64,000 nucleotides of DNA from an uncultured Thermoleophilia bacterium (GTDB taxonomy: Bacteria; Actinomycetota; Thermoleophilia; UBA2241): assembly GCA_963735345.1 (NCBI GenBank), contig CAVTKL010000013.1, forward strand, positions 321,130-385,129, in the 5' to 3' direction. The position numbers and the translations under genes were made by a program. Position 1 is the first letter of the stretch, and the number at the start of each line of letters is the position of its first letter. The notes beneath the pieces are model-generated. The model was given only the letters and a program-made list of their open reading frames with translations. It did no database searches and was not told where the DNA came from. Shown here piece by piece: positions 15,642 through 59,779 of the stretch.

Positions 15642-17363
15642 TCAGGAATCGCGGCGGCTGACGGAGCTCAACGGCTTCGGCGCCTGCGCCACTGGAGCAT
15701 CCCTGCCTGCGGAATAGTAGCCATAGTACCCGCCGACCGGAGCCTCTCCGATCACGATGAAACCAAGCTTCCGGCAAGGCAGCTTGGCGAACTGCTCGTG
15801 AGCTCGCTGCAGCATCGGGCGCCGTACCTGTTCGGGGTTGACGACGAATGCGAGCGCTTCGACCTTCGGGGCCAAAGCAGCCGTGTCACCCACCGCCAGC
15901 ATGGCCGGAGCATCGATCAGCACCAGATCAGCCGATGCGGAGAGCTCGTTGATGATCTCGCCGAACCGGCGCGACGCCACGATCTCGCCCGGATTGGGCG
16001 GGACCAGGCCACTGGTCAGCAGCCGCAAGATGGGCGCTTCCCCGGTCTCATCGGGCCAGACCCACTCGTCAAGACCTGGGGCCGCTGCTGGCTGCCCAGT
16101 GACCGTGTGCAACTGCTTGGCGTTCTTGCCGTTTGATCCGCTCGCCCTCACCGACGCGCCCATGAGAACGCTGCCGCCTCGCGTACGGCTCGGATCCAGC
16201 ACGACCGGTATGACCGCCTTGCTCAGGTCGACGCGGCGCGCGACGACCTGAGAGACCCCGAGGACGTTAGGGGTGCCGAAATAGGCATGCACTCGAGGGC
16301 TGCGCAGGTCCGCGTCGACGAGGACGACGCGCTTGCCCGCCAATGCCATCGAGACGGCGAGGTTACAGATCGTGACGCTCTTGCCCTCCCCCTGGATCGA
16401 ACTGGTGATCATGAGACTACTGATATCGCCATCGATCCCCATGAAGTCCAGGTTGCTGCGCAAGAGCCGAAACGCCTCTGCGTTGACGCCCGATGAGTCG
16501 GTCAGCGTCGGCAGCACATCGACCCGCTTGCCCTTGCGCGGCAGAAGCGGGACATGCCCCAGGATCGGGAGACCGAGCATCTGAGCGATCTGCTCGTCCC
16601 CGTGCACTCGCGTATCGAACTGCTCGAGCAGGAAGGCGAGCCCGACACCCAGCACCGCGCCGACTACGAGCGCGATGAGAAGGCTGCGAAACTTGTCTGG
16701 CGAGAACGGCTCGGACGGCACCCCTGCAGTCGCGATGACCTCGAAGCCGCCGTTGATGCTCGCCTCGAGCAGTTCGAGGTCCTGGAGTCGTTGAGCCAGC
16801 GCTCGATAATCGGAGCTGTCCTGCGCCTCAGCGCTCGTGAACGTCTCCATCCTGCTCTTGACCACCTCGATGGCGTCGGCGACCTGCGACTTGGCGCTCT
16901 CGCGGCGCCATTCCATGAACGACTGAGCGTAGGCATTGGCAGCGGCGGCGGCCGTCTCCGGATCAGCCGAGACCCCTTCGATGCCCACCACGCTCGAGTA
17001 GTAGTTGTTGGCTCCGGCCGTCAGCGAGGCGCTCACGCTGTACCCAGCAGCGAGCTCTTCCTCGCTCATCAGCTTCTCGGCATTCTGCCGGACTCTGGCG
17101 CCCGCGATGATCGTCGGGACGCTCTCGAGGACTGCCTGCTGGGAGCTCGCATCGATGTACGACTGCCCGAGGGGATTCTGGAAGTCGACCTGCTTGACGT
17201 AGAGCAGTTTGGCCGAAGACGAGTACATCGGCGTCCGCGTCCAGGTGTAGGCGGCCCCGATCAAGGTCACGAGCAGCGTGACGACCAGGATCAGCCATTT
17301 CCAGCGGGCCATGACCTCGACGTAGCCGCGCAGCGAGAGTCCGTCAGTGTGCTGTGTCGTCAT
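15642..17363 (-). CDS. wzc: Polysaccharide co-polymerase / BY-kinase (Wzc/CapAB-like tyrosine autokinase)
   Basis: N-terminal TM and Wzz-like periplasmic domain. Walker A SSIQGEGKS, second TM, C-terminal tyrosine cluster GGYYGYYSAG. Confidence 0.88.
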   Translation of the reverse strand: MTTQHTDGLSLRGYVEVMARWKWLILVVTLLVTLIGAAYTWTRTPMYSSSAKLLYVKQVDFQNPLGQSYIDASSQQAVLESVPTIIAGARVRQNAEKLMSEEELAAGYSVSASLTAGANNYYSSVVGIEGVSADPETAAAAANAYAQSFMEWRRESAKSQVADAIEVVKSRMETFTSAEAQDSSDYRALAQRLQDLELLEASINGGFEVIATAGVPSEPFSPDKFRSLLIALVVGAVLGVGLAFLLEQFDTRVHGDEQIAQMLGLPILGHVPLLPRKGKRVDVLPTLTDSSGVNAEAFRLLRSNLDFMGIDGDISSLMITSSIQGEGKSVTICNLAVSMALAGKRVVLVDADLRSPRVHAYFGTPNVLGVSQVVARRVDLSKAVIPVVLDPSRTRGGSVLMGASVRASGSNGKNAKQLHTVTGQPAAAPGLDEWVWPDETGEAPILRLLTSGLVPPNPGEIVASRRFGEIINELSASADLVLIDAPAMLAVGDTAALAPKVEALAFVVNPEQVRRPMLQRAHEQFAKLPCRKLGFIVIGEAPVGGYYGYYSAGRDAPVAQAPKPLSSVSRRDS

Positions 17364-17560
17364 CTCATCCAGTCCGGTAGCCAGTTACGGGGCACCTCAT
17401 GCGACGAAGCAGTGAGGGCGGCCGTCGAGCGTCGTCCACCCTCACTTGCGCTCCACATGATCGTCGCGCCATCCTGTTCGTGTATCGGCAGTCTCGCGGA
17501 GCACATGAAGCGGAGACGAGGCCGCGGGATCGTTTGGTTCGACTCGCGATTCGGCAAGCA

Positions 17561-20013: not shown

Positions 20014-21066
20014 TCACCTCACACGACCTGGCGCAGCGCCCCTCACCAGTCTTCGCGCCCATCGTCGGCCGCGCCGCATCCAGCGATCGCACGGTTCGCC
20101 CAGCTTCACGAGTGAGCGGCCGAGGCGGTACACAGGCGACCGCAGCAGGGCTTCGGCATCATCGACTGGCCTCATCTCCAACGCGGCACTGTGAGCCAGA
20201 TCGGACATCATGCTCACCACGGCGGCAGGGTGGGCGCCCTCGTACCGCTCGAGCCAACTCGGGTAGCGATAGACATTGTGCACCCTGTACGGCTTGCGAA
20301 GCGTCAGGTACGAGTCGGCGAACCAGCGCCGCTCGTTGACAAACCAGTCGCCGTGCAAGCCCCAGTTCGAATAGTACTCCACCTTGTCGCGCACCTGCGC
20401 CGGAAACAGCAGCGAGTAGTGGTGCATGTGGATGCCCCTGCGCGCCATCTCCGCGGCGTCCAGCCAGCAGACCGAGCGGGTGTCCCGGCCGCGATCGTCC
20501 AGCACGGTAGGGGGGCGATGACCCGCGTAGGAGTATCCAGGCCCCCACTTGAACAGCCTGTGGAAGTCCGCAGCCCCGCGGCGAAGATACCATCCGTCCG
20601 CCACGTAGGCCGGCCTCGCCCAATGGGTGATCGTGGGAAAGGTGACAGCCGTGACCTGCGGCTCGCGCGCGAGCCGTTCGACGACCGCTTGCATGTCGGT
20701 CGAGTGGTAGAACTCGTCGACGTCGACCTGCCACAGGTAGTCCCCCGTGGCACGCACCGCGTAGGCCCGGCTCTGCTCGTCCTTCTCCCCCGGCCAGAAC
20801 CCGTCCTCGTGACCTTCGTCCTCGGCGGTCACGATCACGAGTTTGCCCGCCGGATCCTCCTCGCGCGCGAAGCGGCGCAGTTCCTCCAGTGTGCCGTCCC
20901 GGGAGTGCCCGTCGGGAGATGCGATCGCCGCGGCGCCCGGGGCGGCGCCCTCGACGACGATGATCTGGCCAGCGAACGGATAGAGCGCCCGCACGTTGTA
21001 CGTGACGAACGGCATCCCGTTCAGGACGATCATGCCAAAGGTGATGTTCGGACCCAAACGACTCAT
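20014..21066 (-). CDS. Glycosyltransferase (GT2-like / GT-A fold)
   Basis: N-terminal GMIVLNGMPFV and QIIVVEGAA regions, acidic DVDEF motif. ATGA overlap with the downstream-reading AsnB-like gene. Confidence 0.6.
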   Translation of the reverse strand: MSRLGPNITFGMIVLNGMPFVTYNVRALYPFAGQIIVVEGAAPGAAAIASPDGHSRDGTLEELRRFAREEDPAGKLVIVTAEDEGHEDGFWPGEKDEQSRAYAVRATGDYLWQVDVDEFYHSTDMQAVVERLAREPQVTAVTFPTITHWARPAYVADGWYLRRGAADFHRLFKWGPGYSYAGHRPPTVLDDRGRDTRSVCWLDAAEMARRGIHMHHYSLLFPAQVRDKVEYYSNWGLHGDWFVNERRWFADSYLTLRKPYRVHNVYRYPSWLERYEGAHPAAVVSMMSDLAHSAALEMRPVDDAEALLRSPVYRLGRSLVKLGEPCDRWMRRGRRWARRLVRGAAPGRVR

Positions 21067-22509
21067 GAACCGTGCCCGTTCCTCGCCGCATCCCGACGCC
21101 GCAGCAGCGCCTCGATCGGCCGGAGCGTGAGGTACGCCGCGTAGGCCGGCAGTCGCTGCTCGGCGACTCCCAGCCGTTTCATCATCTCGGCCCAGCGACG
21201 GAACCCGTGGGTCAGGCCGAGACGCCAGTAGACCTCCCACCACTGGCCCACAGGCCCGACAGTGCGATTGATCCAGCGGACGTAGTCGGGCTTCACGACC
21301 TCGCGCAGCAACGTAACGTCGAGAGGCCGCAGCGGCACGCGCCTCATCGCCTGGAAGTTGAGGGTGTTGCGAGAGTCGGCGTTCCAGCGCGTGTTCTCGA
21401 GATCCACTCCTTGCCGCGCGAAGAACTCCTTCTGCCACCGCCGGTCCCTGTGGGAGCGCGGGCGGCAGCGTCAGCATGGCCATGGCGAGGTCGACGCTTG
21501 TGAAGGGCGCGGCGCGCCCCGAAGCCCATGGCCTCGGGCGCCCTCACGAGGTAGGAGAGGAGGGCGATGCGCAGCCGGCACGCCGCCACCAGTCTCGGCC
21601 GGTACTGGGTCCGCAGACGCGGGTCCGACTCCAGGAACTCCTGGGCGCCGAGACGCTCGCTCTGGAGGCGGCTCATCGCCGAGTCAGCGGACATCGACGG
21701 GCCCCAACGGAGCAATGCGTAGACGTCGTCTGGACGGTCAAGCCTGCCCGTCTCCCCCTCGGGCCACGGAGAGCCGTTGAACCAGTCTCCACAGGAGCCG
21801 GTGAAGACCACGCTCCCAGCGGCCGTCCGTGAGCGGATGAAGTCGTAGAACTCCAGGTGGTACATGCCGTGCGCGTGCGTCGACACTCCGTATAGCGCAT
21901 CCCAAGCGTCGATGCGTTGGTGGAAGCGGCCCAGCGGCACCAGTTCCCAGCGGATGCCGAGGCGCCGCGCCAGCTCCTTGGCCTTGACCACCTCGAAGAG
22001 ACTCCTGAGGCCTGTCGCTCGTGCCGTACGTGAACGCGCGCACGCGACGCTTGTCGCTGAGCAGTACGTTGATGAAGCGCGAATCGTAGCCGCCACTCGT
22101 CGGCACGACGAGATCCCCTGCCGCGCACGGCGGCGGCGTCGTTGATCCTGGCGCTCGCCAACCCGAGCACGTCCTCGACGCTGCTCTGCCCCTCCAGCCC
22201 CTCGAGAGTGGGGTCGGGCAGGTGCTCCACGCGAAGCCCCGAGGGGCCAGACCACAGGCGCGACGAGTGCCGCAGCATGCGCACGTCGCGCACGGGCGTA
22301 CGGCCGAAGACGCTGAAGCCGAAGTCAAGGTAGTCGTTGAAACCCTCGGGATCGATCTCGACGTTGACGAGGTCGATGACCTCGTTGATGTTGGCTCCGC
22401 TGCGACCGGTCCGCTCGTTGTAGAAGAACGGCCGCGAAGCGAGCCAGTCCGACTCGAAGACGAGCGTCTCGCTCTGGTGCTCGAGATGGGACGCTTCAGG
22501 CAACGGCAT
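21063..22509 (-). pseudogene. Asparagine-synthetase-like amidotransferase (PP-loop SGGYDS), interrupted by >=3 frameshifts
   Basis: Protein is spread over four reading frames (ORFs 21673-22509, 21738-22565, 21344-22255, 21063-21407). SGGYDSRF PP-loop is present. N-terminus lacks the Cys2 glutaminase nucleophile. Confidence 0.6.
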
Positions 22510-22568
22510 GCGGCTCCTCTCTGGTCACGGGCAACGCGAGCGCCCGCTCCGCGCGCCGCCGGCATGCC

Positions 22569-23912
22569 TCAGCGGCCAGGAACGCGAACAGCCAGAAGCC
22601 CATGGGGTACCGGGTCGGGCTGAGGAACCCGAACGACGTCAGGCTCTCGATGAGCGACACCGACGAGCGTTCCCAAGAGGACGAGCGCCAGGAACTCGGC
22701 CTCGCCCTCTCCGCTGAGGCTCATTCTCAGCGGCGCGCCAGCCGGAGACGACATAGAGGAGCAAGACCGTCGCAACACCGATCAGGCCCAGTCGGTACAG
22801 CACCGGCACCCAGACCAGATCGGCGCTCATCCACAGGATGTCAGCGGCCGTGGGCTCCTGCTCGACGGTGACGAATCCTTGGCCCAGCGCGTGGCTCTCC
22901 GAGCCGATCCAGGCGTAGGTGCGCTGCAGCTTGCCCATTCGGTTCTGGAGGTTCTGGTCAGCGACGACGCTCCCGCTGCGCGTGGTCTTGACGATGCGCT
23001 TGAGGAAGTACTGGGACTGGACCGGCAGAGCCACGGTAGGCGACCGCGCCGAAGACGGCCACGAGGGCGAGCACGGCTACCGCTCGTCTCAGGGCCTGCC
23101 CGACCTGCCGCGCCTTGAAGACGCGCACGCCGAGAACCACGACGAACACCGCGATCGTGCACCGACGAGCAGGGTGCGCGTGTACGAGACCCACAGCGCC
23201 GCCAACGGTGACCATCATCACCCCGACCCAGAACACGCTCCACCGAGGCTTGGCGAAGCAGAAGGCGAGCGCCAGGATGCAGAAATCTGCGGCATGAAGT
23301 AGAAGCTCCTCGTGATCTGCTGACCCATGAACGTGATGCTGAGGTACTCCGTCGACCACGTAGATCGGAACGTGCAGCCCCTGGTGCAGGATGAATAGAC
23401 CTGCGGCGATGGTGTTGACGACCACCAGGGCGTCGACGAGATCGACGGTGTCGGAGCGACTCGCGCGACAGAGCATCCCACGAAGAAGGAAGTAGCCGAC
23501 GAAGAGATAGATGAAGCCCTTCGCCTCGCCCACCGTCGCGCTGAGGTCGCCGAAGCGCGACGACCGTGAGAGCCACCTCGAGCGCAGCCAGCGCGGCGAG
23601 CCCCAGCAGAACGACCTCCTCCGGGGCCGAGAGCGACGGGCCGAAGACACGCGGTCGAGGGTCAGCGCGTCGCCGTGACGGCAGCACGCAGCTCGAAGTA
23701 CACGACCCAGACGATCACGAGCCACATCATGATGTGATCTGAGATCGAGAGCCGCCCGGGTATCCAGAAAGGCCGTGCGTAGTCGAAGAACACCGCGAGA
23801 TTCTGATACATGAGGAACGGGATGCCGAGCAGGAAGATGCGCTGCCGAAACGACGCCCCACGAAGTACGCGAGGAGGAGCGCGGGGAGCGCGTAGTGCAG
23901 GAGCGTCAGCAC
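22569..23912 (-). pseudogene. Wzy/O-antigen-ligase-like polytopic membrane protein, heavily frameshifted
   Basis: Hydrophobic helices are distributed over ORFs 23727-23912, 22958-23725, 22827-23687, 22639-23034 and 22569-22778 in different frames. Confidence 0.45.
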
Positions 23913-24234
23913 CTCAGGTCAGTCCCGAAGTAGTCAGAGACCCGACTGCGGACGGCCCCACGCGCGGGAGCGCGCCGAGGATGATCGAGGGCGGCAACTG
24001 AGCCGTCAGGACTCGTCCGGTGCGACCGACCAAGGTTCCCCGCCCAGCCTGCCACCCTCGCGGTGTCACCGACAGACACAGGCTGAAGTCCAACTGGGAG
24101 AGCGACGATCAGCGTCGCCGACGCGGTCACTCGAGAGGTCCGACATGGGGATGGGACAAGCACGCACCCTGCCTCGATTAGGGCGGACCCTCACTTCTTC
24201 CGGCCCGCGGCATCCGACGGAACTGTACACCACT

Positions 24235-24261
24235 TCGATAACGCTTATCGGCGTCGATCAC
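24235..24261. promoter_or_regulatory. AT-rich inverted repeat CGATAA-cgc-TTATCG plus a third CGAT half-site, in the divergent promoter region
   Basis: Unusually AT-rich palindrome in a 70% GC genome. Lies about 160 nt upstream of the beta-helix gene start and 320 nt upstream of the wzy-like start. Confidence 0.3.
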
Positions 24262-24414
24262 TCAACTCCTGAGCCGCAATGCCGAGGCCATGCCTGACGC
24301 AGAACGCACATGTGCTCTGCACGAGGCGAACGATCGGCAGTCGATGGTGGCGTCACATCCTCTGAAAGGACAGGGGATCCGGCCATTCTCGACACTGGAT
24401 CATAGGAGGCAGAC

Positions 24415-26063
24415 GTGACCTCGACGAAGACAATCCTCGTAGGCATAGCTACGTCCTTGCTGCTCGTGCTCGCACTGGCCCCCGCCCCTGCGGGCGCCGC
24501 AGTAATGACTCAAGAGCAGCACGCACGCCTCGCCACCCTCAACGCCCGCGCCACAAGCATCCACGAGCGGATCGGGGAACTCCGCAGGCACACCCGCCTC
24601 GCGCGACACAGCGACAAGCTGCAGCGTCGACTCGTCCGTGCAGACGCAGCGCTGATCCGCGTCAACCAGAGCCTGGCCTCCCTGAACCGTGCCGTTCTCG
24701 ATACCCCCCAAGCGCGTAGTGAGTATGCGGTGAGGCTCCTCGACAGCAATCGTCTTGCTGCGCACGTGACCGCCGACGCCGTGGTCCTGAATGGGCGAGC
24801 CCTGCGCCTCTGGAACGCCGGACTGGGGCGGAGGGTCGAAGCGGCGCGCACTGATCTGGGGATCCTGAGCTCACAGGTTCGCGCCCAGCGTCTGGACTCG
24901 CGCCGACCGAAGCCGCCCTCGAGGCCGGCTCCGACGCCGACAGTGAAGCCAGCCGTGATGCCTACTCCTACTCCTACGCCCACGCCGACTCCGACGCCCA
25001 TTCCCGCGCCCACGGTGACACCGGCACCGACTCCGACGCCCATTCCCGCGCCCACGGTGACACCGGCACCGACTCCTGCACCGGCACCGACTGTGACGCC
25101 GACACCGACGCCCACCGTGACACCGACGCCGACGCCGACCGTGACACCGACACCGACGCCCACCGTGACGCCGACGCCCACACCGACTCCCGCGCCCACG
25201 CCGGCCGATGCGCCTGCGGACTGGACGCTCGTGTCCGGCAAGACTTTCACGACGTACGTGGTGCCGACCGGCACGCAGAACGTCGTCTATGAGGACTGCA
25301 CGTTCACCGGCGGCCTGCCCGACTGGAACGGCGTCCTCACCCTCACCAATCCCTGCCACGACATCACCTTCCGCAATTGCGTGATCGACTCAGGGCCGGT
25401 GAACGGCGTGACCATCGTCGACCAGGGCGGCACGATCTCCAACATCACCTTCGAGAACTGCACCTTCCGCTCCTCGAAGCGCATGGGCTTCGAGTGCATC
25501 AGCCGCGGCTCCGGCAGCAGCGGCTACCGCAACATCAACCTCATCAACTGCACCTTCGAGCCCCAGGGCTCGGAGATCGTCAGCTACGACGGCACGGCCG
25601 CATCCGGGCTATCTCGACGATCAGCGGCTGCACGCTCAAGGGCGGCGGCACGGTCCAGCGCAGCGGCGGCATGGGCAGCGGCCTCGAGCTCAACGGCATC
25701 ACCAACATGACCGTGACGAACAACCGCATCTACGCCTGCGCCAACGGCCTGCTGAACCTGCAGATGGGGCAGATGGACGGCTACACGGGCGACAGCAAGT
25801 GGGTCATCACCGACAACCTCATCGACGCCTCGACCTCTTACGGACCGGTCTCGGTGGGCTCCGCGGTGGTCGGCGGCATCAACGTCTACGGCGGCGTCTA
25901 TGCCCGCAACACGGTGATCAGCGGCCTCTCCTCGGGCGGCTGCCTCACCCTGAACGGGAGCCACAACATGAACTGGCGCACGACGACCTTCCGGGACGCC
26001 CAGAACCGCGCGGACTACGTGACGCCTTGGCAGGGCAGCGGCAGCTCGGGGAACCTGTTCTGA
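24415..26063 (+). CDS. Secreted right-handed beta-helix protein (pectate-lyase/epimerase-like) with coiled-coil and Pro/Thr linker; one frameshift near 25605
   Basis: Signal peptide, then a heptad-like region, then a (PT)n linker, then parallel beta-helix repeats ([30 protein letters not shown]). Frame changes from the 24415 frame to the 25377 frame. Confidence 0.7.
24910..25201 (+). repeat. Coding tandem repeats encoding a [14 protein letters not shown] / PTPTVT linker
   Basis: Perfect 42-nt tandem duplication (24985-25026 = 25027-25068), followed by about four 18-nt PTPTVT units. Confidence 0.85.
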
Positions 26064-26112: not shown

Positions 26113-27219
26113 CTAGCCGCGGATCCACCTGTTCATGGATGAGGCGTCCACAAGGGCCGACCCGAGATCCCGGAACTCCGACTCGCCGTGCAGCAAAGCG
26201 TCGACCTGGGTCAGGACCGGCACGCTGCGGTCGCGCAGAAGGAGCCGAGGGCGAAACGGCGCCATCATGCCAAAGACGGACCGATCGCCTCTCTCTTCGA
26301 GGAGCGAGGGCACGCGAAGCCAGCACATGAGATCGGCCCATCCGCTGTTGGGCGCAAACATGAGCCTGCAACTCCTGAGGTAGCCTAGCTCCCGGGTCAA
26401 CAGCGAGGCATCGGCCAGTGAGGCGGTCGTGACCATGCCGTCGGGCAGCACGGAGCCGCCGGGATGCCCGTAGACCAGAAGCGGCAAGCACAAGTGCGCG
26501 GCCGTCGTGCGAGCGTCCGCCAGCACTTCCTCCACGGAGCTGTTTCTCGGGTCGAGCGAGAAGGACACGGACCTCATCTGCACACCCACGTGGTCCGGGT
26601 AGGTGTTCTCCGAGGAGGCGCAGTCGAATGCTGACGGCAGGTAGGTCGGGGGCATCACGTCCCCATGCTTCCAAGGGTCATCGTTGTCGAACTCCGTGGA
26701 GACCTCCACGAGGTCGCGATCCCAGCGCGTCCAAGGGCGAGCTGGGGCCAGGTAGACTCGATGACTCAAGAGGCTGCGCCATTCCTCCTGCAGCCGTCTA
26801 GCCTTCTCGCGAGCCACGACCCCCCTGATCCTGTTGAGCCTGCCCCTGTCGGGCTGCCTGATGTGTGGGCCGAAAGCGAGCCGGTCCGCGCCGTAGCGCC
26901 GGAAGAGGGCGTCCTCGGCGGCGAACAGATCCGGATCGTCGATCGCCGCACCCGCCGGGTACAGTTGCGGTCGACGCGCGAGCACTTTCCAGCCGGCTCT
27001 CAGCCAGGGCTCTACCCGGCCCAGGAAGTAGCGGATCTCGATCCCCATCTCACCTGGGTAGGCAGGCAGCAGGTGACCGTCGCTCACAATGGGGTGCATC
27101 GGCGCAGCCGCCGCACGAGCAGGGACGAGGTGCAAGCGCTCTGCCGACACAGCGATGATTCTCCGTTTGATGCCGAAGTGAGGACTAGTCACGAGAGAGA
27201 GAATGTCGTTCGGACACAA
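26113..27219 (-). CDS. Hypothetical protein, possibly a GT-B-like glycosyltransferase or capsule-synthesis protein
   Basis: 368-aa ORF with coding composition and no recognised motifs. Start may be the internal M at 27102. Confidence 0.35.
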   Translation of the reverse strand: MCPNDILSLVTSPHFGIKRRIIAVSAERLHLVPARAAAAPMHPIVSDGHLLPAYPGEMGIEIRYFLGRVEPWLRAGWKVLARRPQLYPAGAAIDDPDLFAAEDALFRRYGADRLAFGPHIRQPDRGRLNRIRGVVAREKARRLQEEWRSLLSHRVYLAPARPWTRWDRDLVEVSTEFDNDDPWKHGDVMPPTYLPSAFDCASSENTYPDHVGVQMRSVSFSLDPRNSSVEEVLADARTTAAHLCLPLLVYGHPGGSVLPDGMVTTASLADASLLTRELGYLRSCRLMFAPNSGWADLMCWLRVPSLLEERGDRSVFGMMAPFRPRLLLRDRSVPVLTQVDALLHGESEFRDLGSALVDASSMNRWIRG

Positions 27220-27249
27220 ACGCTAGTGGAATAGTGCGTACCACGGTCT

Positions 27250-27684
27250 TCAGAGCTCGACGAGACCGGAGTCGATCCCAGAGGCCCCGGGGGCCGCCGC
27301 CGAGTCCGGGTCACACGTTCCCGCCGAGAGGATGTCCGGGATGCCGACATCTCGAGCCACGCTCAGTGCCCAAGCAGTACGAAGCCCCCGTGGCTTCTCA
27401 TCGTTGATGAGCACTCGCTCGCCAACGGGCAGCCCAAGCAGCAGGATGGCGTACCGCAGCCCCCAACGAGCAAGTTGTTCCTCCGTCTGCTGTCTGTAGC
27501 TATGGGCCCGGGCACTCAACAGCACGACCACATCACCCTCCGGCACATCCCGAAAGAACTCCCGCACCCCCGGCAAAGGGGTCTCCTCGGCCGAATGCAA
27601 GTAGCCATTGTGCGGGAAGATCACGCCGTCGACGTCAATGAGCCACGTCTTGGGCAAGTCACTCAGCTGGGAGCGCCTGATCAC
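27250..27684 (-). CDS. HAD-superfamily phosphatase (KdsC/GmhB-like sugar-phosphate phosphatase)
   Basis: DxDG motif (WLIDVDGVIF). The N-terminal part of the long ORF is S/W-rich junk, and a GTG at 27684 is the preferred start. Overlaps the SIS gene end by 26 nt. Confidence 0.5.
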   Translation of the reverse strand: MIRRSQLSDLPKTWLIDVDGVIFPHNGYLHSAEETPLPGVREFFRDVPEGDVVVLLSARAHSYRQQTEEQLARWGLRYAILLLGLPVGERVLINDEKPRGLRTAWALSVARDVGIPDILSAGTCDPDSAAAPGASGIDSGLVEL

Positions 27685-28267
27685 CGCTCTTGCCCCTTCT
27701 GCCGATAGCGCCACCTGGATGGTTGTGCAGGAACTGCTCCAGAGGGACACCCAGTCTCTCCGAGAGATCCACGGCGATGGCATTGAAGACAGCGAGGAAG
27801 ACGATGGATGAGTTGACCGGAGCCATGTCCCAGAGGTCACCCTCGTGCGCGAGTTCGACGACCGTGCTGTGCTGCGTGAGGTCGGCGATGGGCGACGCGG
27901 CCGTGCAGGTGAGCGACCATGTGGTCAAGGGTCGACTCTGCACAAGCCGCGCAAGAGCGACGCTCTCTTCGGTCGATCCGCTCTTGGAGACGATGATGAG
28001 CAGGTCGTGCGGCGCGAGGATGCCCAGATCGCCGTGGACTGCACTGTTCGAGTGGAGGAATCGAGCCGACAGCCCGAAGCTGTTCAGGGTCCCGGCGAAC
28101 TTCTCGCAGATCGGGACGTTCTTGCCCAAGGCGGTGACCACGACCTGGTGGCCGTCCCGCAATGCAGCCTCGCAAGCATCTGCGAGGAGCCCGACCCCAT
28201 CCGCATCCCTGTCAGCCACCGAGGCGATCGCAGACGCCTGGTCAAGTAGCCGCTCTCTCAGTCCCAC
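27659..28267 (-). CDS. SIS-domain sugar-phosphate isomerase (KpsF/KdsD arabinose-5-P isomerase-like, no CBS domains)
   Basis: ALGKN...HGDLGIL...SKSGSTEE closely matches the KdsD SIS core (GKSGHIGRK...HGDLGM...SNSGES). Confidence 0.65.
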   Translation of the reverse strand: MGLRERLLDQASAIASVADRDADGVGLLADACEAALRDGHQVVVTALGKNVPICEKFAGTLNSFGLSARFLHSNSAVHGDLGILAPHDLLIIVSKSGSTEESVALARLVQSRPLTTWSLTCTAASPIADLTQHSTVVELAHEGDLWDMAPVNSSIVFLAVFNAIAVDLSERLGVPLEQFLHNHPGGAIGRRGKSGDQALPAE

Positions 28268-29763
28268 AACTCCCCCAGCACCTCCGTGCCCCTGTAGAAG
28301 GCGCCGCAGACCTTATCATAGTCATCCCACGCATAGGTCGTCAGCGAGAGCCAGATGATGCCCAGAATCGTCATGAGGTGGCGCTCGGAGATCCCACTGG
28401 CTTCGAAGACCTCAGGAGCCAGTGATTCCCACCCACTGCTCTCGATCTCCAGGTCGACCTCGTGCGGCTTTATGGAGAGGCGAAAGCGACCCACGTTGAA
28501 CTGATCGTAGTTGGTCAGAACGGAGTAGAGCAGCTTGCCCCAATCGTACGCAGGATCGCCAAACAGGCGTGTCGTCCCGAAGTAACCGCGCGGGTCGATG
28601 AAGACGACGCGCTCTCCATCCAGCAGCATGTTCGAGAACGTCGGATCCCCGTGGATGAAGCAGAAGCGCTCCGGGTAGTGACGACGCACCATCTCACTGA
28701 GCGCCTCCCACTGGTAGAGTGGGTTCAGATACGTCCTGCCGTTGATGACGAGCTCAGGGCGATCGGCGAACGGAACGAGCCTCCTCACCTTCGCCAAGCG
28801 CTCCGCCGTCTTCGTGAGATAGGCAGTCTCCAGGCTCGAGGCATCAGCGCTCACTGGGGGGAAGGCTCCATGGATCTCGCTGAGCTCGCGAATGATGGTG
28901 TCCAGAGAACCTTTGGACGCGTGCCCGCGATACGGCTCCCGTCCGCGAACACGCCCCATGCGCAATGGGTCGTAGCCACGAACCGCCGGCAGACACTGCA
29001 GCCCCGCGAGAGAAGCCTGTCGATACCAGTTCTGCTCCAGCTCGGCCAGCGTCCGCCCTTGCTCATCGAGGGGCTCCTTCACGATCGATCCGTCCGGCAG
29101 CGAGGTGATGCTATTGAACGGACGGCTCGCGAACTCGCCGACGCCCCGCTCCTCGTAAGCCTCCAGCGTGCCGATCTCCGAACAGATGTCGCCGAGCGGC
29201 ACGCCCACCGCCTGCCATTCGGGCAATGAAGCGAGGTGCTCGCAGAACTCGCCGGCAGGGGGGACTGAGAGCAGATCAGAGGTCCGCGGGAACCAGAAGT
29301 AGCCTGCGATCCCCGCCACACTGGAAGGCAGATGAATCGGCTTCCCGTCCTGGAGAGACCACCGACATGGAAATGACTGCGAGAGACCGATCGCGGGCAA
29401 GTCAAGACCCGAGCAGAGCGGGACCGGAGACTCGGAGTAGACGAGATCGCACCATGAGAGCACGACGGGAACCTCCGGGTCCAGCTGCTCAGCCGCTTTC
29501 GCGACCCCGGCACAGGTCCCAGAGCCATCAGCCGAGACGATGCGACAGCGCTGATGGCGCCCGAATGCCTCCATGTACCTCCTGAGCACGTCGAGCTTGT
29601 AGTCGCCGATGACGACGATGTCCGCCTCGGGGAAGAGGTCCAAAGCGTGAAAGAGCAGCGGCTTGCCGCGAAGAGGGACAAGCGCCTTGGGCTTGTTGGC
29701 GGTGAGCTGTGCCATGCGCGTGCCTTGGCCCCCCGCCTGGATTATGACGTTGAGCTCGCCCAT
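28258..29763 (-). CDS. Bifunctional nucleotidyltransferase (N-term) / APH-choline-kinase-fold sugar or small-molecule kinase (C-term)
   Basis: N-terminal IIQAGGQGTRM...KPKALVPL nucleotidyltransferase signature. C-terminal FIHGDPTFSNMLL and FIDPRGYFG Brenner/APH motifs. Resembles AmgK-MurU or LicA-LicC fusions. Confidence 0.7.
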   Translation of the reverse strand: MGELNVIIQAGGQGTRMAQLTANKPKALVPLRGKPLLFHALDLFPEADIVVIGDYKLDVLRRYMEAFGRHQRCRIVSADGSGTCAGVAKAAEQLDPEVPVVLSWCDLVYSESPVPLCSGLDLPAIGLSQSFPCRWSLQDGKPIHLPSSVAGIAGYFWFPRTSDLLSVPPAGEFCEHLASLPEWQAVGVPLGDICSEIGTLEAYEERGVGEFASRPFNSITSLPDGSIVKEPLDEQGRTLAELEQNWYRQASLAGLQCLPAVRGYDPLRMGRVRGREPYRGHASKGSLDTIIRELSEIHGAFPPVSADASSLETAYLTKTAERLAKVRRLVPFADRPELVINGRTYLNPLYQWEALSEMVRRHYPERFCFIHGDPTFSNMLLDGERVVFIDPRGYFGTTRLFGDPAYDWGKLLYSVLTNYDQFNVGRFRLSIKPHEVDLEIESSGWESLAPEVFEASGISERHLMTILGIIWLSLTTYAWDDYDKVCGAFYRGTEVLGELWD

Positions 29764-29799
29764 TGCGCCCGGTCCCATTGGCTGCTTCGCCCGCGACCG

Positions 29800-31092
29800 C
29801 TAGGCCCCGGAGACCCCGCTCACCGACAGTTCCAGCGGTCCGTCAGAAATGCGCACGTCATCCTCACCAAAGGTCGCCGCCCAGTTGGTGCCATAGCGGA
29901 AGTCGAACCCTACTCGGCCCGGATCGCAGGTCTCCACGTCGAACTCGAGATGGACGGCGTCGATGACTCGGCGAAAGGCCTGAGTCGCAGCCAGCTCGAG
30001 ACGGTATCTTCCCGACGCCAGCGGCAGTCGACGTATGTCGAGCGTGATCGGCAAACGCGCCGAGACGGGAACGAAGCTGCTCCTGCCGAAAGAGCTCTGG
30101 CGCCCCGAACACGACCGGCTGTCCGACGATCGTGACGATCCTCCATTCGACGTTGAAGGCCAGCTCTTCGCGACCCACGCAGGCCATTTCGACGTGCAGG
30201 CTGGTCAGGGAGTCCTCGTCCTGCGTCGACGTCCAGAACGTGCGCCTCAGCGATCGCGACGTCCGCCATCGACTGCTCGTCGTCCGCCCTGCGGACGGTG
30301 AAGACGGTGCCCTGAGTGCCACCCTCGGCGACGTACTCGTCGACGATTTCGTCGACGTCTCCCACCTGCACGAGTCGACCCAGCGTCGAGAAGAGCACAG
30401 CGCGTGCACAGGGCGCGCACGGCGCCCATGTTGTGGCTGACGAAGACGACGGTCCTGCCGCTGCTGGCGACCTGCTCCATCTTGCCGAGGCACTTCTTCT
30501 GGAACTCGGCGTCGCCGACGGCAAGCACCTCGTCGACGATGAGGATCTCCGGGTCGAGGGACGAGGCGACCGCGAACGCAAGCCGCACGTACATGCCGCT
30601 CGAGTAGCGCTTCACGGGTGTGTCGAGGAAGCGTCCGATCTCGCTGAACTCGACGATCTCGTCGAACTTGCGCTTGATCTCGGCGCGCGTCATGCCCAGG
30701 ATCGCGCCGTTCAGCAGGATGTTCTCGCGACCGGTCAGCTCGTTGTGGAAGCCGGTGCCCACCTCGAGGAGGCTCGCCACCCGCCCTCTGATCTCGGCCC
30801 GCCCTTCGGTCGGCTCAGTGATGTGAGAGAGCACCTTCAGCAGCGTGCTCTTGCCGGAGCCATTGCGTCCGATCACGCCCATCACTTCGTCGCGCTTCAC
30901 CTCGAAGCTGATGTCCCTGAGCGCCCAGAGCGTCTCCGAGGTGTGGGTAGCGGCGCCAGGGTGGCGAAGACGCTCGAGCGGGCGCTTGGCGGCCTGCGTG
31001 AGCGTGTCACGCAGCGTTCGATAGCTCGCACGCTCACCACCGATGCGGTACATCTTGCCAAGGCCGACCGTACGCAGGGCGACGTCGCTCAT
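29800..31092 (-). pseudogene. wzt: ABC transporter ATP-binding protein Wzt with C-terminal carbohydrate-binding domain; three apparent frameshifts
   Basis: Walker A GRNGSGKST, signature YSSGM, Walker B ILIVDE. Reading continues in shifted frames (ORFs 29910-30581, 29864-30493, 29800-30054) into a Wzt-C-like beta-sandwich. Confidence 0.7.
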
Positions 31093-31095
31093 CGT

Positions 31096-31963
31096 TCACA
31101 CCACATCGGCGAACACACGCTCCATTCTCTTGAAGTAGAACAAGCCGAAGACGAACAGCACGACGATCACTACCGTCGAGATCCACATGTAGCCGCCCGG
31201 AGCCTGCTGACCGAGCAACGCCCAGCGGAAGCCGCCGATCACTCCCGTCATCGGGTTCAGGGCGAAGATGACACGCAAAGGCCCTTCCGGGATACTGCTG
31301 ATCGGGTAGATCACGGGGCTCACGAACATCCAGAGCTGAACCAGGAACGGGATGACGTACTGCACGTCGCGATACAGGACATTGAGGGCGCTCAGCCAGA
31401 GACTGACGGCGAGCGCGGTGACAAGCGCGAGCAGGACGAACAGCGGCAGAAAGACGATGTGCCATGTGGGGGCGATCCCATACGCAGCCATGAGTCCGAT
31501 CAGCACCACGAACGAGACGCCGAGGTCGACTAGCCCGGCCAGCACCGCCGAGACGGGGATCACCAGCCGCGGAAAGTAGACCTTGGTGATGAGGTTCGCG
31601 TTGCCGACGAGGCTCACGCCGGAGCGCGACAGCGCTCCGGCGAAGAACTGCCACGGCAGCAGCCCGGCGAAGCTGAACACCGGGTAGGGGATACCGGAGG
31701 TCGAGTCCTGACCGATCCCGAGCATCTTGTTGAACACGACCGTGAACACCACCATCGTGAGGAGCGGCTGCAGGATCGCCCAAGCCACGCCGATGACGGC
31801 CTGCTTGTAGCGGACGAGAATGTCCCGCCACGTGAGGAAGTAGAGAAGCTCGCGATACTCCCACAGCTCACCGAAGCCGAGCGCCGCCCAGCCACGCTTG
31901 CGTTCGTAGACGACGAAACCCCTTGTCCGCCGGCGCGCTGGCTGCCTTCGCGATGCCCATCAT
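31096..31963 (-). CDS. wzm: ABC-2 type polysaccharide exporter permease Wzm (N-terminal frameshift or non-canonical start)
   Basis: ABC-2 signature region ELWEYRELLYFLTWRDILVRYKQAVIGVAWAILQPLL is in frame upstream of the called GTG 31788, with no in-frame ATG/GTG. An ATG at 31963 is in the +1 frame. Confidence 0.65.
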
Positions 31964-36641: not shown

Positions 36642-39600
36642 TCAGTTCACTGTCAACCGTGCCGCCGGGACCTTGCTCGCCACATTGCCGGCGAGATCGG
36701 TCGCCAGCACGCGCCAATTGTAGGTGCCCTTCTTGAGCACCGCTTTGTATCTGCTGATCTGCGCGACATTGCTGATCCGCGTTCCCACGGTGATGGTCTT
36801 CACGACCTTCGTGTGTTTCCTGATCTGGATCTTGACGACGGCCTTGCCGCAACCGGGCAACGCGTCGGTGATCCGGAAGCGGAGCGTCGCCACCCTGCCT
36901 GCCTTCACGGAGACGGCGGTGGCCGCAGTGCTCGGCCTCGCGCTGTCGATATTGACGAAGCCGATCTCGGGGGCCCCGGCGTTCCCGGCCCTGTCAGTCG
37001 CCGAGTACGTGACCGTGTGACTGCCCGCCTCGCTCACGGTGAGAGGGCCCGCGTAGACGGTGCTGGGACCGCCATCGATGCTGTAGCTGATGCTCTCCGC
37101 GCCGGACTTGGCGTCGCTCGCCGTCAGGACGACTGTCTGGTCGGTCTTGAGCCAGCCGCTCGTAGGGGTGCTCGCCAGGACCGGCCTGGACGAGACCGCA
37201 GGGGGCGTCACGTCCACGTTCACATACCCGGCATCGTGGACCGATTCCGTGGCGAGGCTGTCGCTAGCGTAGTACTTGAAGGAGTGTGAGCCCTCCTGGG
37301 CGATGACAACCGCGGCGCTGTCCCCCAAGATATCGGTCCATGTCGCGCCGTCGTCCGTGCTGTAGTGGATGGCGCGCTGCGCACCCCCGCCACCGGCGGC
37401 GCTCACGACCACCGTCTGCGCAAGGTTGTGCCAGCCGGTCGTCGCGGCTGCGGCGAAACTGTACGTCGTCTCGCTGACCGGTGGCGGGGAGTCAACGAGG
37501 ACGGTGAAGCTCCGATCGGCCTCCCGGTTACCTGCGGCGTCGATCGACCGGTAGGAGACGGTGTGCGACCCGTGGCTCAGCACCACGGCCGAGCCGCTAC
37601 GGTATTCGCCGGCATCGTCCACTTTGTACTCGGTCCTGGCGAGGCCCCCCCTCATGCCCGAGAGAGCGTCGGTCGCGCTCAGAACGATCGTCGCCGGAGC
37701 CATCAGCGACGCCACCAGATGATCGTCGGTGGTGACCGGCGAGGTCTTGTCGATGTTCACGAAGCCAGGGGCGTGCGTGGCCTCTGTGGTCAGCGAGTCG
37801 CTGGCATAGTACTGGAAGCGGTGAGAGCCTTCGGCGCTCACCGTCACTTCGGCACTGTCGCCGGCGGTCGTGGTCCACGTGGAACCGGCATCCGTGCTGC
37901 AGTGAATGGAGCGTGAGATGCCGGTGCCGCCGCTCGCCGTGACGGTCACCTTCTGATCGGCGCTCTTCCAGCCGCTGGCGCCGTTCCAGGCGAACACGTA
38001 GTCGCTGCTCGACGTCAGCAGATTCGATGGAACGTATCCGCTCCGCGCCGCAAGGATGGTGCCAGCGTCGCCGACCGTCCACCCCCACGCCGACACGCCA
38101 TAGAGAGGTTTGCCCGTCCCTGAGTCCTGTGGGACCCAGGTGACGCCGCCGTTCGTGGTGACGAGCATCGTCCCGCCCGCGCCACTGATCCAGCCCTGTG
38201 AGGCGTCTCCGAAGGACACGTCATGCAGATCGTTGCCCGTCCCAGAGGACTGGGGTGTCCAGGTGGCTCCGCCGTTTGCCGTTGTGAGGATGGTGCCACC
38301 AACGCCGACCGCCCAGCCATGCGACGGGTCGCTGAAGGCGACGCCGGCAAGATCGACGCCCGTCCCCGAGACCTGTGGAGCCCAGGTGGAGCCGCCGTCG
38401 GCGGTCGCCACGACGGTGCCGCCCACGCCGACCGCCCACGCGTGTTGACTGTCGGTAGCAGCCACATCAGCCAGCCTGCGGACGGTCCCCGAGGCCTGAG
38501 GAGCCCAGGTGGAGCCGTCGGTACTGACGAGGATCGTGCCGCCGGCGCCCACTGCCCAACCCCGCGTGAGGCTGGGCATGGCGACGTCATCGAGGGCCGG
38601 GTACGCCCCGGGCGTCGTCTGCGACGCCCACGTTGCGCCTCCGTCCGCAGTCGCGAGAATGATGCCCTGGGCGCCCGCGACCCACCCGTGAGCGGCGTCG
38701 ACCGCATCGGCGCCGTACAGACTCGTATTGCCGGCCGGCCGGCCCTGGGACACCCACGTGACGCCGGCGTTCGCGGTGGCGAGGATCAACCCGTTGTCGC
38801 TGACTGCCCAGCCGTGCGTCGCGTCGGAGAAGCTGACACCCAACAGAGAACTCAGTGTCCCTGCGCTCAGCTGGCTCCACGTCGCGCCATCGGTGGTGTG
38901 CAGGATGGTCCCATTGACGCCCACCGCCCAACCCGCACTCGTGCCGACTATGGAAGCGCCGGCCAGGTTACTCCCGGGGCCAGCGGTCTGCGCACTCCAA
39001 GTCGTGCCGTCGGCGGTGGCGGCGATCCATCCGCCCTCGCCCACCGCGTAAGCATGCGTGCCGTCGTGACTGCAGGTGATCCATCTGAGGTTTTCGGGGA
39101 CACCTGAGGACTGAGGGACCCAGGTCGCGCCGCCGTCCGTGGTGATGAGCAGGGTTCCGGCGTAGCCCGCCGCGTAGCCATGTACAGCGTCGTCAGCGAA
39201 GGCAACAGCTCTCACGGTCACGCTTGTCCCCGAAGCCTGGGGCCCCCAGATGGCGCCGCCATCCGCGGACGCCACCATCGTGCCGCCGTCGCCGACCGCC
39301 CACACACGCGAGCCGGCGCTGTCGCAGGTGACGCCTCGGAGGAATTGCGTCGTGTTCGACGCCTGCAGGGTCCAGCTGGCGCCGCCGTTCGACGTGGCGC
39401 AGATGACGCCGCCACCGCCGACCGCCCAGCCGAGTGTACCGGTGCTGTCGAAGGCGACGGCATGCAGCCACTCGCCCGTCGGCGCACTACGATGGGTCCA
39501 GGTGACGCCGCCATTGGTCGTCACCAGAATGACTCCGCCGTCACCAGTGACCCAACCATGACGACCATCGCTGTTGAACGCTACCCCCGTCAACCAGAGG

Positions 39601-39863: not shown

Positions 39864-40233
39864 GTTCAGCCTCCTCGGGCACGCCTCCCGCGCAGAAGGG
39901 TCATGCGCTGCCCCGACAAACCCACCAGCGACGCGTCCAGCCACCGTCCGGCAGCGCCGCAAGGACGTCAGTATCTTAGCCGCTGTGGCGCCCCGAGGTC
40001 GAGATAGACTTGCCCACTGGCAGCGACTCGCCCGCCCGATTCGAATGACCTCAGCCCCGGCACGCGCTGTGATAGGCTGCCAACCGAACCGCCCGAAGGA
40101 CCTGTTCGTGGACGATCATGAATGCGTTAGTTCCGCAGCGGGCTCGTGACGTACCAGACGGATCCTGCGGGCAAGCAGAGACTGGCCGAGCGGAGACTCG
40201 ACCTGCACATGCCGACGCAATGGAGCTGACCTG

Positions 40234-50706: not shown

Positions 50707-50865
50707 CTGGAGACCGAAGAGGCGCCGGTCTCGGAAGTACGGACCTCTGCAGTACCAGCATCGGCGAGCAAGCGGGACAACCTCCCGTTCTCTCGCCGCT
50801 TCCATTGTGCGAGAATGGCACGACTCGCTTCGGGCCGGAGTCATCTTTCAGAGGGGGCGACTCAC

Positions 50866-59646: not shown

Positions 59647-59779
59647 TTCCAGTCCGGAGATCGCCACGCTCGCCCCCCCGCCAAGACCAAGCCGGCCATC
59701 AGGCTCTGTGCTGTCTGTACCCGTCGGCGCCCATCCTGGAACCCCAGCGACCTCCGACGACACCCCCCTGACGTCGACG

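Follow-up and report, generated by a model that had tools for sequence, protein, structure and literature searches.

A candidate D-arabinofuranose activation module next to ABC-type glycan exporter genes in an uncultured Thermoleophilia bacterium

Which sugar is activated by a module of four genes that lies next to an ABC-type polysaccharide exporter in the uncultured Thermoleophilia bacterium of assembly GCA_963735345.1, and which enzyme uses this sugar? The genes are located at positions 26113-29763 of a 64-kb stretch of contig CAVTKL010000013.1, and this stretch is called the window here. An earlier reading made from the letters alone (the sequence-only reading) had described them as a SIS isomerase, a HAD phosphatase, a kinase/nucleotidyltransferase fusion and a 368-aa protein of unknown family. 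Domains, homology, predicted folds and gene linkage, read by analogy with enzymology known from phages, suggest that the module is likely to make a nucleoside diphosphate (NDP) derivative of D-arabinofuranose (D-Araf) de novo. All four open reading frames (ORFs) are present on the minus strand where that reading had placed them, and with the genes for Wzm and Wzt they form a single minus-strand run from 26113 to 31788:

26113..27219, minus strand: GT-B-like protein 'GTB368', 368 aa (AlphaFold2 (AF2) model, Foldseek, gene linkage)
27250..27684, minus strand: minimal capless HAD phosphatase, 144 aa (motifs, profile, predicted fold)
27659..28267, minus strand: SIS-only protein, predicted arabinose-5-phosphate isomerase, 202 aa (Pfam SIS, PDB relatives)
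28258..29763, minus strand: AfhE-like nucleotidyltransferase/APH-kinase fusion, 501 aa (Pfam NTP_transf_3 and APH, phage homology)
29815..31092, minus strand: Wzt-type ABC ATPase (Pfam ABC_tran, E 3e-22; NCBIfam TagH/Wzt-type, E 3e-60 to 3e-56, below the curated cut-offs)
31096..31788, minus strand: Wzm-type ABC-2 permease (Pfam ABC2_membrane, E 5e-16; NCBIfam Wzm/RfbD-type permease, below the cut-off)

Pfam and NCBIfam both give matches for Wzm and Wzt, which are encoded on the same strand directly upstream of the fusion gene, and the proposed vicinity of module and exporter is thereby borne out. The G+C content at third codon positions is 0.75-0.81 in the four module frames, compared with about 0.65 overall, and 0.75-0.86 across the whole array; the window has a G+C content of about 66%. 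For each of the four module proteins many conserved homologues were found. Together with the raised third-position GC, these homologues indicate that the four ORFs are real genes and not chance ORFs. The phosphatase gene begins with a GTG preceded by AAGGGG and, read directly from the sequence, shares 26 nt with the end of the SIS gene. Alternative starts exist for the fusion gene (an upstream ATG at 29778, resulting in 506 aa) and for the 368-aa ORF, which begins with TTG and could also begin with GTG at 27192 or ATG at 27099, the latter giving the 328-aa form found in public databases. The Wzm frame is open up to 31959, and its start may be located further upstream.

Pfam places two domains on the single chain of the 501-aa protein, NTP_transf_3 (residues 11-114, E 1.5e-12) and APH (residues 268-419, E 2.6e-8). 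The coupling of a nucleotidyltransferase to an APH-fold sugar kinase, which had been predicted from the sequence, is thus confirmed at the domain level. A tblastn search of phage genomes with the fusion revealed 357 matching records, 336 of which cover at least 80% of the query length. Identity is 26-30% among the matches listed and below 60% in all 357 records. The E values of the matches listed range from 1e-23 to 1e-76, the latter belonging to Synechococcus phage S-SRM01, and the Mosigvirus (RB69-like) records listed are found at about 1e-31 to 1e-33. Both halves are related to RB69 proteins: the kinase half to ORF052c (29% identity, E 1e-29), with IHGDP.FSN and FIDPRGYFG common to both, and the transferase half to ORF053c (E 1e-9). 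The match to PHROG 4098, a family of unknown function, runs from end to end (E 5e-45; residues 6-497 on profile positions 4-499 of 559). Throughout the fusion family, GG.GTR..KPK, HGDxxxxN and IDPRGYFG are invariant motifs, and Q-A-G-G-x-G-x-R...N-x-P-K, H-G-D-x-T-F-x-N and I-D-P-R-G-Y-F-G do not vary in 24 family members including the window protein. By its sequence the N-terminal domain is classified as a sugar-1-phosphate nucleotidyltransferase, and the C-terminal APH-fold domain is a predicted arabinose-5-phosphate 1-kinase.

For the 202-aa protein, Pfam identified SIS only (E 6e-15) and no CBS domain. Its best NCBIfam matches are KdsD, KpsF and GutQ, with alignments restricted to the SIS part of these models, in agreement with the earlier proposal of a KdsD/KpsF-type SIS core that lacks CBS domains. 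The scores stay below the equivalog cut-offs (90 vs 505 bits for KdsD, 87 vs 204 for KpsF and 84 vs 481 for GutQ), and the isomerase was therefore not assigned to KdsD. In the PDB it matches 5uqi (E 1e-18), 3etn (1e-17) and 3fxa (5e-16) best, all of them SIS proteins with a single domain, followed by the SIS domain of KdsD, 2xhz (2e-13). In the alignment to these relatives the positions GK, HGDLG, E(143) and HPGG are kept, which correspond to the catalytic residues of KdsD. PMC13326640 treats 3etn as the arabinose-5-phosphate isomerase of Bacteroides fragilis. Among phage proteins, RB69 gp55 is 33% identical (E 1e-28), and the PHROG family 5670 'arabinose 5-phosphate isomerase' is matched with E 1e-30. 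The protein is accordingly not filed as a KdsD equivalog; judged by its sequence relatives, it matches the single-domain arabinose-5-phosphate isomerases of the c3406 / B. fragilis type.

The 144-aa phosphatase has no match above threshold in Pfam; its HAD nature is shown by motif, profile and predicted fold. Both HAD alignments keep the DxDG motif (D17, D19, G20), R59 of S/T-A-R and the core R-x3-N-D-x-K without exception, and E89, P98 and G100 are invariant or nearly so. Compared with the PDB, the family profile has a sole match, the phosphatase domain of Pnkp1 (E 5e-6). The AF2 model (predicted local distance difference test, pLDDT, 84.9) also has Pnkp1 as its first Foldseek match in the PDB (E 1.4e-4), followed at ranks 2-4 by three chains of 9iqw, which is described as 'phage HY126 encoded D-arabinose 1,5-diphosphate phosphatase AfhF' (E 4e-4 to 6e-4, probability 1.00, target-normalised template modelling score (TM) 0.51-0.57, 18-19% identity). 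GmhB (2gmw) is found only at rank 45. Of the earlier label 'KdsC/GmhB-like', a GmhB-like role can be retained and the likeness to KdsC can not, as the best matches are Pnkp1 and AfhF. The phosphatase is the weakest sequence-level link to the phage pathway described below, to which it is connected by fold and motif and not by sequence; a phosphatase of the window type was found by tblastn in only 6 phage records. On its modelled fold it is a predicted arabinose-1,5-bisphosphate 5-phosphatase and an analogue of AfhF. The phage HAD phosphatases RB69 gp51 (L109:1209-1595) and PspYZU05 gp074 (L006:5659-6267; L numbers denote the comparison loci) are labelled 'phosphoheptose isomerase' in GenBank/RefSeq, which is an apparent mis-annotation.

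A trio of this kind is described for phages RB69 and DLP3 in PMC13326640 (Nucleic Acids Res 2026). Next to an isomerase of arabinose-5-phosphate it comprises a bifunctional protein, whose nucleotidyltransferase is N-terminal and whose kinase is C-terminal, and a HAD phosphatase of small size. The same source reports the homologues of phage HY126 as characterised, attributing this to He et al. (Nat Chem Biol 2026); there, AfhE is bifunctional, a kinase for arabinose-5-phosphate as well as a UDP-arabinose pyrophosphorylase, and AfhF is a Mg-dependent HAD phosphatase that converts arabinose-1,5-bisphosphate to arabinose-1-phosphate (PMC13326640). The phage route as given there leads from ribulose-5-phosphate over arabinose-5-phosphate, arabinose-1,5-bisphosphate and arabinose-1-phosphate to UDP-arabinose, and its members are HY126 AfhE/AfhF with the isomerase, RB69 gp55, gp53:52 and gp51, and DLP3 gp83-81 (PMC13326640). 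The phage pathway, which serves arabinosyl-5-hydroxycytosine DNA, has the same three proteins as the window, with a fusion of about 500 aa and a HAD protein of about 125-145 aa, and the genes are adjacent in the phages as in the window. Fusion and isomerase are homologous to those of the window over the full length and, in the comparisons made here, group with the AfhE/AfhF-type system by sequence, whereas the phosphatase is related by fold. The two settings differ in several respects. The window genes belong to a cellular genome and a Wzm/Wzt polysaccharide cluster, those of the phages to a DNA-modification module, and neither a 5-hydroxycytosine synthase (ThyA homologue) nor a phage-type DNA arabinosyltransferase lies alongside the window genes. 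The window phosphatase belongs to a Pnkp-like sequence family that is not recognisably of the T-even-phage type, and the transferase partner is from a different, unnamed family without a phage homologue.

From these relations the following pathway can be proposed for the window. The SIS-only isomerase would convert ribulose-5-phosphate to D-arabinose-5-phosphate, which would be phosphorylated at C1 by the APH-fold domain to arabinofuranose-1,5-bisphosphate. The 144-aa HAD phosphatase would take off the 5-phosphate, and the N-terminal nucleotidyltransferase would use the resulting arabinofuranose-1-phosphate and a nucleoside triphosphate to form NDP-D-Araf. By analogy with the phage enzyme the nucleotide is probably uridine triphosphate. 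The order of the kinase, phosphatase and nucleotidyltransferase steps and the specificity for UDP are taken from the phage work as reported in PMC13326640, and it can be assumed that the bacterial enzymes keep the phage substrates and nucleotide. We infer a furanose ring for the product because the 5-phosphate keeps the pentose from closing to a pyranose and the ring is afterwards fixed by the glycosyl phosphate. In a last step the 368-aa GT-B-like protein would move Araf onto a lipid-linked glycan in the cytoplasm, both its transferase role and this acceptor being presumed, and Wzm/Wzt would then export the Araf-bearing glycan. ABC-transporter-dependent pathways finish their polymer in the cytoplasm, and a soluble nucleotide donor would therefore suit such a pathway. 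It is plausible that the product feeds the ABC-exported polymer, as the sequence-only reading had suggested. Its further idea of a salvage or bypass route gives way to synthesis de novo from ribulose-5-phosphate with a logic like that of NDP-heptose, which matches the phage trio.

NDP-heptose pathways consist of the isomerase GmhA, the kinase HldE or HddA, the phosphatase GmhB and the nucleotidyltransferase HldE or HddC. Their four-step logic of isomerisation from a ketose phosphate to an aldose phosphate, phosphorylation at C1, removal of the distal phosphate by a HAD enzyme and nucleotidylation is identical to that proposed here, and kinase and transferase are fused in HldE as they are in the window protein. 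The window module differs in its pentose, KdsD-type isomerase, APH-fold kinase and minimal capless HAD phosphatase, compared with a heptose, GmhA, a kinase of ribokinase or GHMP fold and GmhB. A GmhA-type heptose pathway was ruled out, as the isomerase is of KdsD type and not of GmhA type in NCBIfam. In the AmgK/MurU system for recycling of N-acetylmuramic acid, as in other pairs of an APH-fold anomeric sugar kinase and a uridylyltransferase, the kinase makes a sugar-1-phosphate from which a small nucleotidyltransferase forms the NDP-sugar, as in the window. However, this is a salvage of free sugar without isomerase or phosphatase, while the window kinase is predicted to act on a 5-phosphorylated sugar. 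Among the PDB sequences, MurU (4y7t) is weakly matched by the N-terminal domain of the fusion. The AmgK/MurU system was rejected since the window has an isomerase and a phosphatase and the MurU and AmgK cut-offs of NCBIfam are not reached.

As far as is known, D-arabinofuranose in bacterial envelopes is explained by decaprenyl-phospho-arabinose (DPA) and membrane GT-C enzymes. In Corynebacteriales, DPA is a lipid-linked donor which is made from phosphoribosyl pyrophosphate and used by membrane GT-C enzymes outside the cytoplasm. The DPA route and the proposed one would both bring D-arabinofuranose into an actinobacterial cell-envelope glycan, with a lipid donor and GT-C enzymes in the former and a predicted soluble nucleotide sugar and a cytoplasmic GT-B-like enzyme in the latter. 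To our knowledge, a nucleotide-sugar route to D-Araf was not elucidated before 2025-2026, and then solely for the modification of phage DNA. No bacterial (non-phage) route to UDP-D-Araf was found in the literature searched, the coverage of which is incomplete. The enzymology is known from phages; the cellular polysaccharide context and the two candidate transferase families are new as far as the literature searched shows.

The fusion has thousands of full-length bacterial homologues with 41-47% identity, all of them generically named, from sources such as Synergistales, Clostridiales, Fervidobacterium, Solirubrobacteraceae and Sutterella wadsworthensis. Taken together, homologues are spread over Actinomycetota, Thermotogota, Synergistota, Clostridia, Cyanobacteria and Proteobacteria, with Sutterella of the human gut among the last. 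Of 80 metagenomic fusion loci, 44 with adequate flanks were used for counting neighbours. A small HAD gene lies within 3.5 kb of the fusion in 40 of these 44 loci and a SIS gene in 34; both are present in 31, and only a single locus has neither. In Sutterella-type loci the adjoining isomerase is a full-length SIS+CBS protein similar to KdsD. In six loci (L025:225-2339 (P0151), L055, L070, L080, L084 and L102) the SIS isomerase is fused to the nucleotidyltransferase/kinase, giving proteins of 700-790 aa. These triple fusions are Rosetta-stone evidence that isomerase and fusion act in one pathway. The alphaproteobacterial loci have no dedicated SIS gene; alphaproteobacteria of this kind already make arabinose-5-phosphate for 3-deoxy-D-manno-octulosonic acid (Kdo). 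The KdsD-like neighbours, the SIS fusions and the SIS-less alphaproteobacteria lend independent support to arabinose-5-phosphate as the substrate.

A cassette of the bacterial type is also found in Synechococcus phage S-SRM01 (L007:4402-7578), in which SIS, the fusion and, after the fusion, a Pnkp-like phosphatase with 47% identity to that of the window are encoded. It is surrounded by glycosyltransferase, epimerase and methyltransferase genes, and in the 11.5-kb stretch examined no thymidylate-synthase homologue is annotated. This context suggests a modification of glycans rather than of DNA.

The second part of the question concerns the 368-aa protein. No match to it was found in Pfam (E <= 0.01), NCBIfam, the PHROGs, PDB sequences or phage genomes. 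Its family, GTB368, comprises 47 clusters in 5.8 billion proteins. A profile search through 1.84 billion representatives yielded 74 members and gave no bridge to any larger or known family. Invariant blocks of the family are PGEMG.EIR..RVEPWL, HVGVQ.R...RNS, LLVYG and RELG.L..C..M.APNSGWADLM.WL.VP, and E57/E61, R83, H210, Q214, R216, E277 and S292-G293-W294 are among its invariant residues. The AF2 model (pLDDT 84.9; predicted TM score, pTM, 0.84) retrieves mostly two-domain GT-B proteins from the PDB by Foldseek, with the GT9 heptosyltransferases TibC, WaaC and WaaF dominating the top ranks, and viral GT9-like proteins head the list from BFVD. The stretch ..PNSGWADLM.. lies in the C-terminal domain at a place which presumably corresponds to the donor-binding DSGxxHLA of GT9 enzymes. 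WaaC, WaaF and TibC appear to be the nearest structural neighbours of the model, but the Pfam profile Glyco_transf_9 is not matched, TM is only 0.3-0.4 and a bridging family is lacking. The model therefore lends some support to a GT-B fold and none to membership in GT9. A KpsS/KpsC-like nature, which had been considered before, found no support: Pfam gave no match, and neither KpsS nor KpsC is among the 50 best Foldseek matches in the PDB.

The gene linkage is a stronger argument for the role of the 368-aa protein than its fold. Among species representatives of GTDB, GTB368 was found in an Actinomycetota metagenome-assembled genome (MAG), cyanobacteria, several Alphaproteobacteria, a Campylobacterales MAG and a Burkholderiales MAG. 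In 11 of about 21 loci (the window included, L001/L002 and L004/L005 counted once each) the gene adjoins a fusion and/or phosphatase gene or lies within about 6 kb of it, and direct linkage to both genes is seen in Actinomycetota, Cyanobacteria, Alphaproteobacteria and Campylobacterales. Islands of only three genes, for a 368-aa homologue, the fusion and the phosphatase without SIS, occur in four alphaproteobacteria:

L020:9902-12974, L018:9932-12977, L022:9941-13087 and L014:7587-11116: three-gene islands, found in Rhizomicrobium electricum, Nitrospirillum iridis, Phenylobacterium aquaticum and a Caulobacter MAG

The neighbours of the islands are genes for FtsK, an aminotransferase, an ammonium transporter, NadA and NadB, peptidases and TonB receptors. 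Since the islands are isolated among housekeeping genes, the 368-aa protein is the sole candidate user of the nucleotide sugar there. Cultured or named carriers are Rhizomicrobium electricum DSM 21034, Nitrospirillum iridis DSM 22198 and Phenylobacterium aquaticum KACC 18306, and with such a minimal island in cultured alphaproteobacteria the proposed pathway becomes directly testable. A Xenococcaceae cyanobacterium (L010:8705-11053) has a fusion protein in which TPR repeats of about 400 aa precede the GTB368 domain. On an alphaproteobacterial contig (L004:10001-11029, L005:9654-10682) a GTB368 homologue stands beside a STELLO-like transferase, a TPR protein, FlbT/FlaF and three flagellin genes, and some members of the family may glycosylate proteins such as flagellin.

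A motif search revealed a further family, here called 'RSGF' (300-470 aa, motif RSGFxD[LIV]), which has no Pfam match above threshold. It is present in L025-L028 and L034-L107, for example:

L027:6877-7953: RSGF family member
L028:11175-12458: RSGF family member
L035:9979-11382: RSGF family member

In 25 of 28 well-flanked loci an RSGF gene lies within 6 kb of the fusion on the same strand. GTB368 occurs in 1 of these 28 loci, and the two families together in none. As they exclude each other in the same slot, GTB368 and RSGF seem to share one role, and RSGF is probably the commoner cognate transferase. The motif ..SG[WF]xDL.. is common to both families, and the cyanobacterial locus L010 has weak matches to both. 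The comparison of the two families by hhalign resulted in E 0.0076 with a probability of 5%, and comparisons of single sequences were insignificant; on these sequence data, homology of the two families is not established. Functional models for either of these families, the fusion or the phosphatase do not exist in NCBIfam, Pfam or PHROG. Neither did a housekeeping function emerge for the fusion, nor a family outside glycan metabolism for the 368-aa protein, the two outcomes that had been named as contrary to the earlier interpretation. Based on the GT-B model and the linkage to fusion and phosphatase genes, the assumption of a cognate transferase is plausible, and with some reserve we favour a cognate arabinofuranosyltransferase.

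Several observations weigh against an NDP-D-Araf pathway that ends in this transferase and the exporter. The bacterial enzymes are only 24-33% identical to the phage proteins. The structural likeness of the modelled phosphatase to AfhF is modest (E 4e-4, TM about 0.5). BLASTP of the phosphatase against RB69 gp51 and PspYZU05 gp074 gave nothing, and hhalign against the RB69 phosphatase was marginal (E 0.014, probability 3%), with the same order of motifs. The Foldseek matches of the 368-aa model reach E values of only 3e-4 to 7e-4 and TM of 0.3-0.4, and further down the list there are UDP-N-acetylglucosamine (UDP-GlcNAc) 2-epimerases, which have the same fold and are not transferases. About half of the GTB368 loci, including that of the closest GTDB relative L008, have no module in the DNA available. 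Finally, the exporter may be non-functional, unless the breaks in its Wzt gene are assembly errors. This gene is interrupted by three frame changes, near 30380-30416, 30208-30225 and 30048-30060, while its orthologues in L029-L031 are uninterrupted over 420-434 codons and colinear with the window in three different frames. Wzt is longer than its 281-aa ORF at 30247-31092, with a C-terminal extension of about 170 aa, which is possibly a glycan-binding domain, and a true end near 29815. We suspect assembly indels, with a pseudogene as the alternative.

Part of these observations would also fit a 368-aa protein that is no arabinosyltransferase. It could be an NDP-sugar epimerase or hydrolase, or a transferase of a different donor or a non-sugar group, with arabinose transferred by a GT2 or GT4 enzyme of the cluster. 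The weak Foldseek E values and the 2-epimerases among the matches are in line with this, as are the lack of a Pfam glycosyltransferase family, the GTB368 loci without a nearby module, the members beside flagellin, STELLO and TPR genes, and the several other glycosyltransferases in the window. However, no other candidate transferase is present in the three-gene islands of the four alphaproteobacterial genomes, the top structural matches are mainly GT9 transferases, and the mutual exclusion of GTB368 and RSGF in the 28 loci suggests one shared role. A different function of the 368-aa protein therefore appears unlikely to us.

Even less probable, in our view, is that the same enzyme logic leads to another product, e.g., a ribofuranose from ribose-5-phosphate, another aldose derived from a ketose, or a CDP-, GDP-, dTDP- or ADP-pentose. 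The low identity to the phage enzymes leaves room for such a change, and about 23% of the well-flanked loci have no isomerase nearby; most of the isomerase-less loci, however, belong to organisms that are expected to have KdsD. By PDB sequence, the transferase domain is most similar to glucose-1-phosphate cytidylyltransferase, which uses cytidine triphosphate, and to mannose-1-phosphate guanylyltransferases, which use guanosine triphosphate, but the generic nucleotide-binding loop at the N-terminus is all that these matches cover. The isomerase encoded alongside is specifically of the arabinose-5-phosphate type and in other lineages is KdsD-like or fused to the kinase, which argues for D-arabinose.

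Two further explanations have very little in their favour. LicCA fusions have the domain order transferase, then choline-kinase-fold kinase, and the sequence-only reading had listed an activation of choline (or another small alcohol) as a CDP-linked polymer substituent, next to a CMP-sugar. Of this, only a weak PDB match of LicC (1jyk) to the first 56-60 residues of the fusion is left (residues 10-65, E 1.4e-4); the full-length homology to AfhE-type phage proteins is far stronger, neither Pfam nor NCBIfam lists a LicA- or LicC-family or choline-kinase-type model for the fusion, and the linked phosphosugar isomerase and phosphatase would have no role in choline activation, so that this option is highly improbable and, like the CMP-sugar, unsupported. 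That the module is what remains of the Kdo pathway, or a version of it in which the isomerase stands for KdsD and the phosphatase for KdsC, would explain the KdsD, KpsF and GutQ matches and is just as hard to credit, since the scores are far under the cut-offs, the phosphatase resembles Pnkp and AfhF rather than KdsC, the closest relative found is an Actinomycetota MAG, a phylum not known to have Kdo-containing lipopolysaccharide, and among the ORFs scanned throughout the window none matched a KdsA-type or KdsB-type family of Pfam, in accordance with their previously noted absence.

If D-Araf is indeed the product, the pathway is common in bacteria and hidden behind annotations such as 'NTP transferase domain-containing protein' or 'hypothetical'. 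With a confirmation, thousands of genes would gain a function and two new transferase families would be defined, and D-Araf would be expected in glycans of many bacteria not yet studied, including a gut commensal. A wider proposal can be made only tentatively and may well prove wrong: UDP-D-Araf would be a widespread, overlooked precursor of bacterial glycans, GTB368 and RSGF would be the first nucleotide-sugar-dependent D-arabinofuranosyltransferases for cell-surface glycans, and the phage DNA-arabinosylation pathway would share its origin with the cellular cassette. GTB368 and RSGF would then be cytoplasmic counterparts of the mycobacterial GT-C enzymes with lipid donors.

The array is part of a polysaccharide region of about 45 kb. 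This region contains genes for a Wzz/tyrosine-kinase-like protein, several GT4 and one GT2 glycosyltransferase, a GT87 match below threshold, two polysaccharide deacetylases, beta-helix proteins, a heparinase II/III-like protein, an enzyme of the UDP-glucose-dehydrogenase family and a Bac_transf initiating transferase. The Wzz/BY-kinase-like gene is located at 15642-17384. A second polysaccharide block (49192-57846 and 58081-59805) encodes beta-helix/pectate-lyase-like, GT4 and heparinase II/III-like proteins, an enzyme of the UDP-glucose/GDP-mannose dehydrogenase family and a Bac_transf initiating transferase with CoA_binding_3. With this block and the Wzz/BY-kinase-like gene, the region may encode more than a single assembly route. 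On the minus strand at 36642-39962, midway through the region, lies a gene for a protein of 1106 aa with six YCF48/BNR-type beta-propeller repeats and Ig-like domains.

At 21000-23700 and 24400-26063 the frame with the best third-position GC switches repeatedly, and a right-handed beta-helix protein rich in PT repeats is split between 24415-25710 and 25377-26063. Matches in several frames are also seen on the related MAG contigs L001 and L008. The frame switching at 21000-26063 looks like indel errors from long reads and not like biology.

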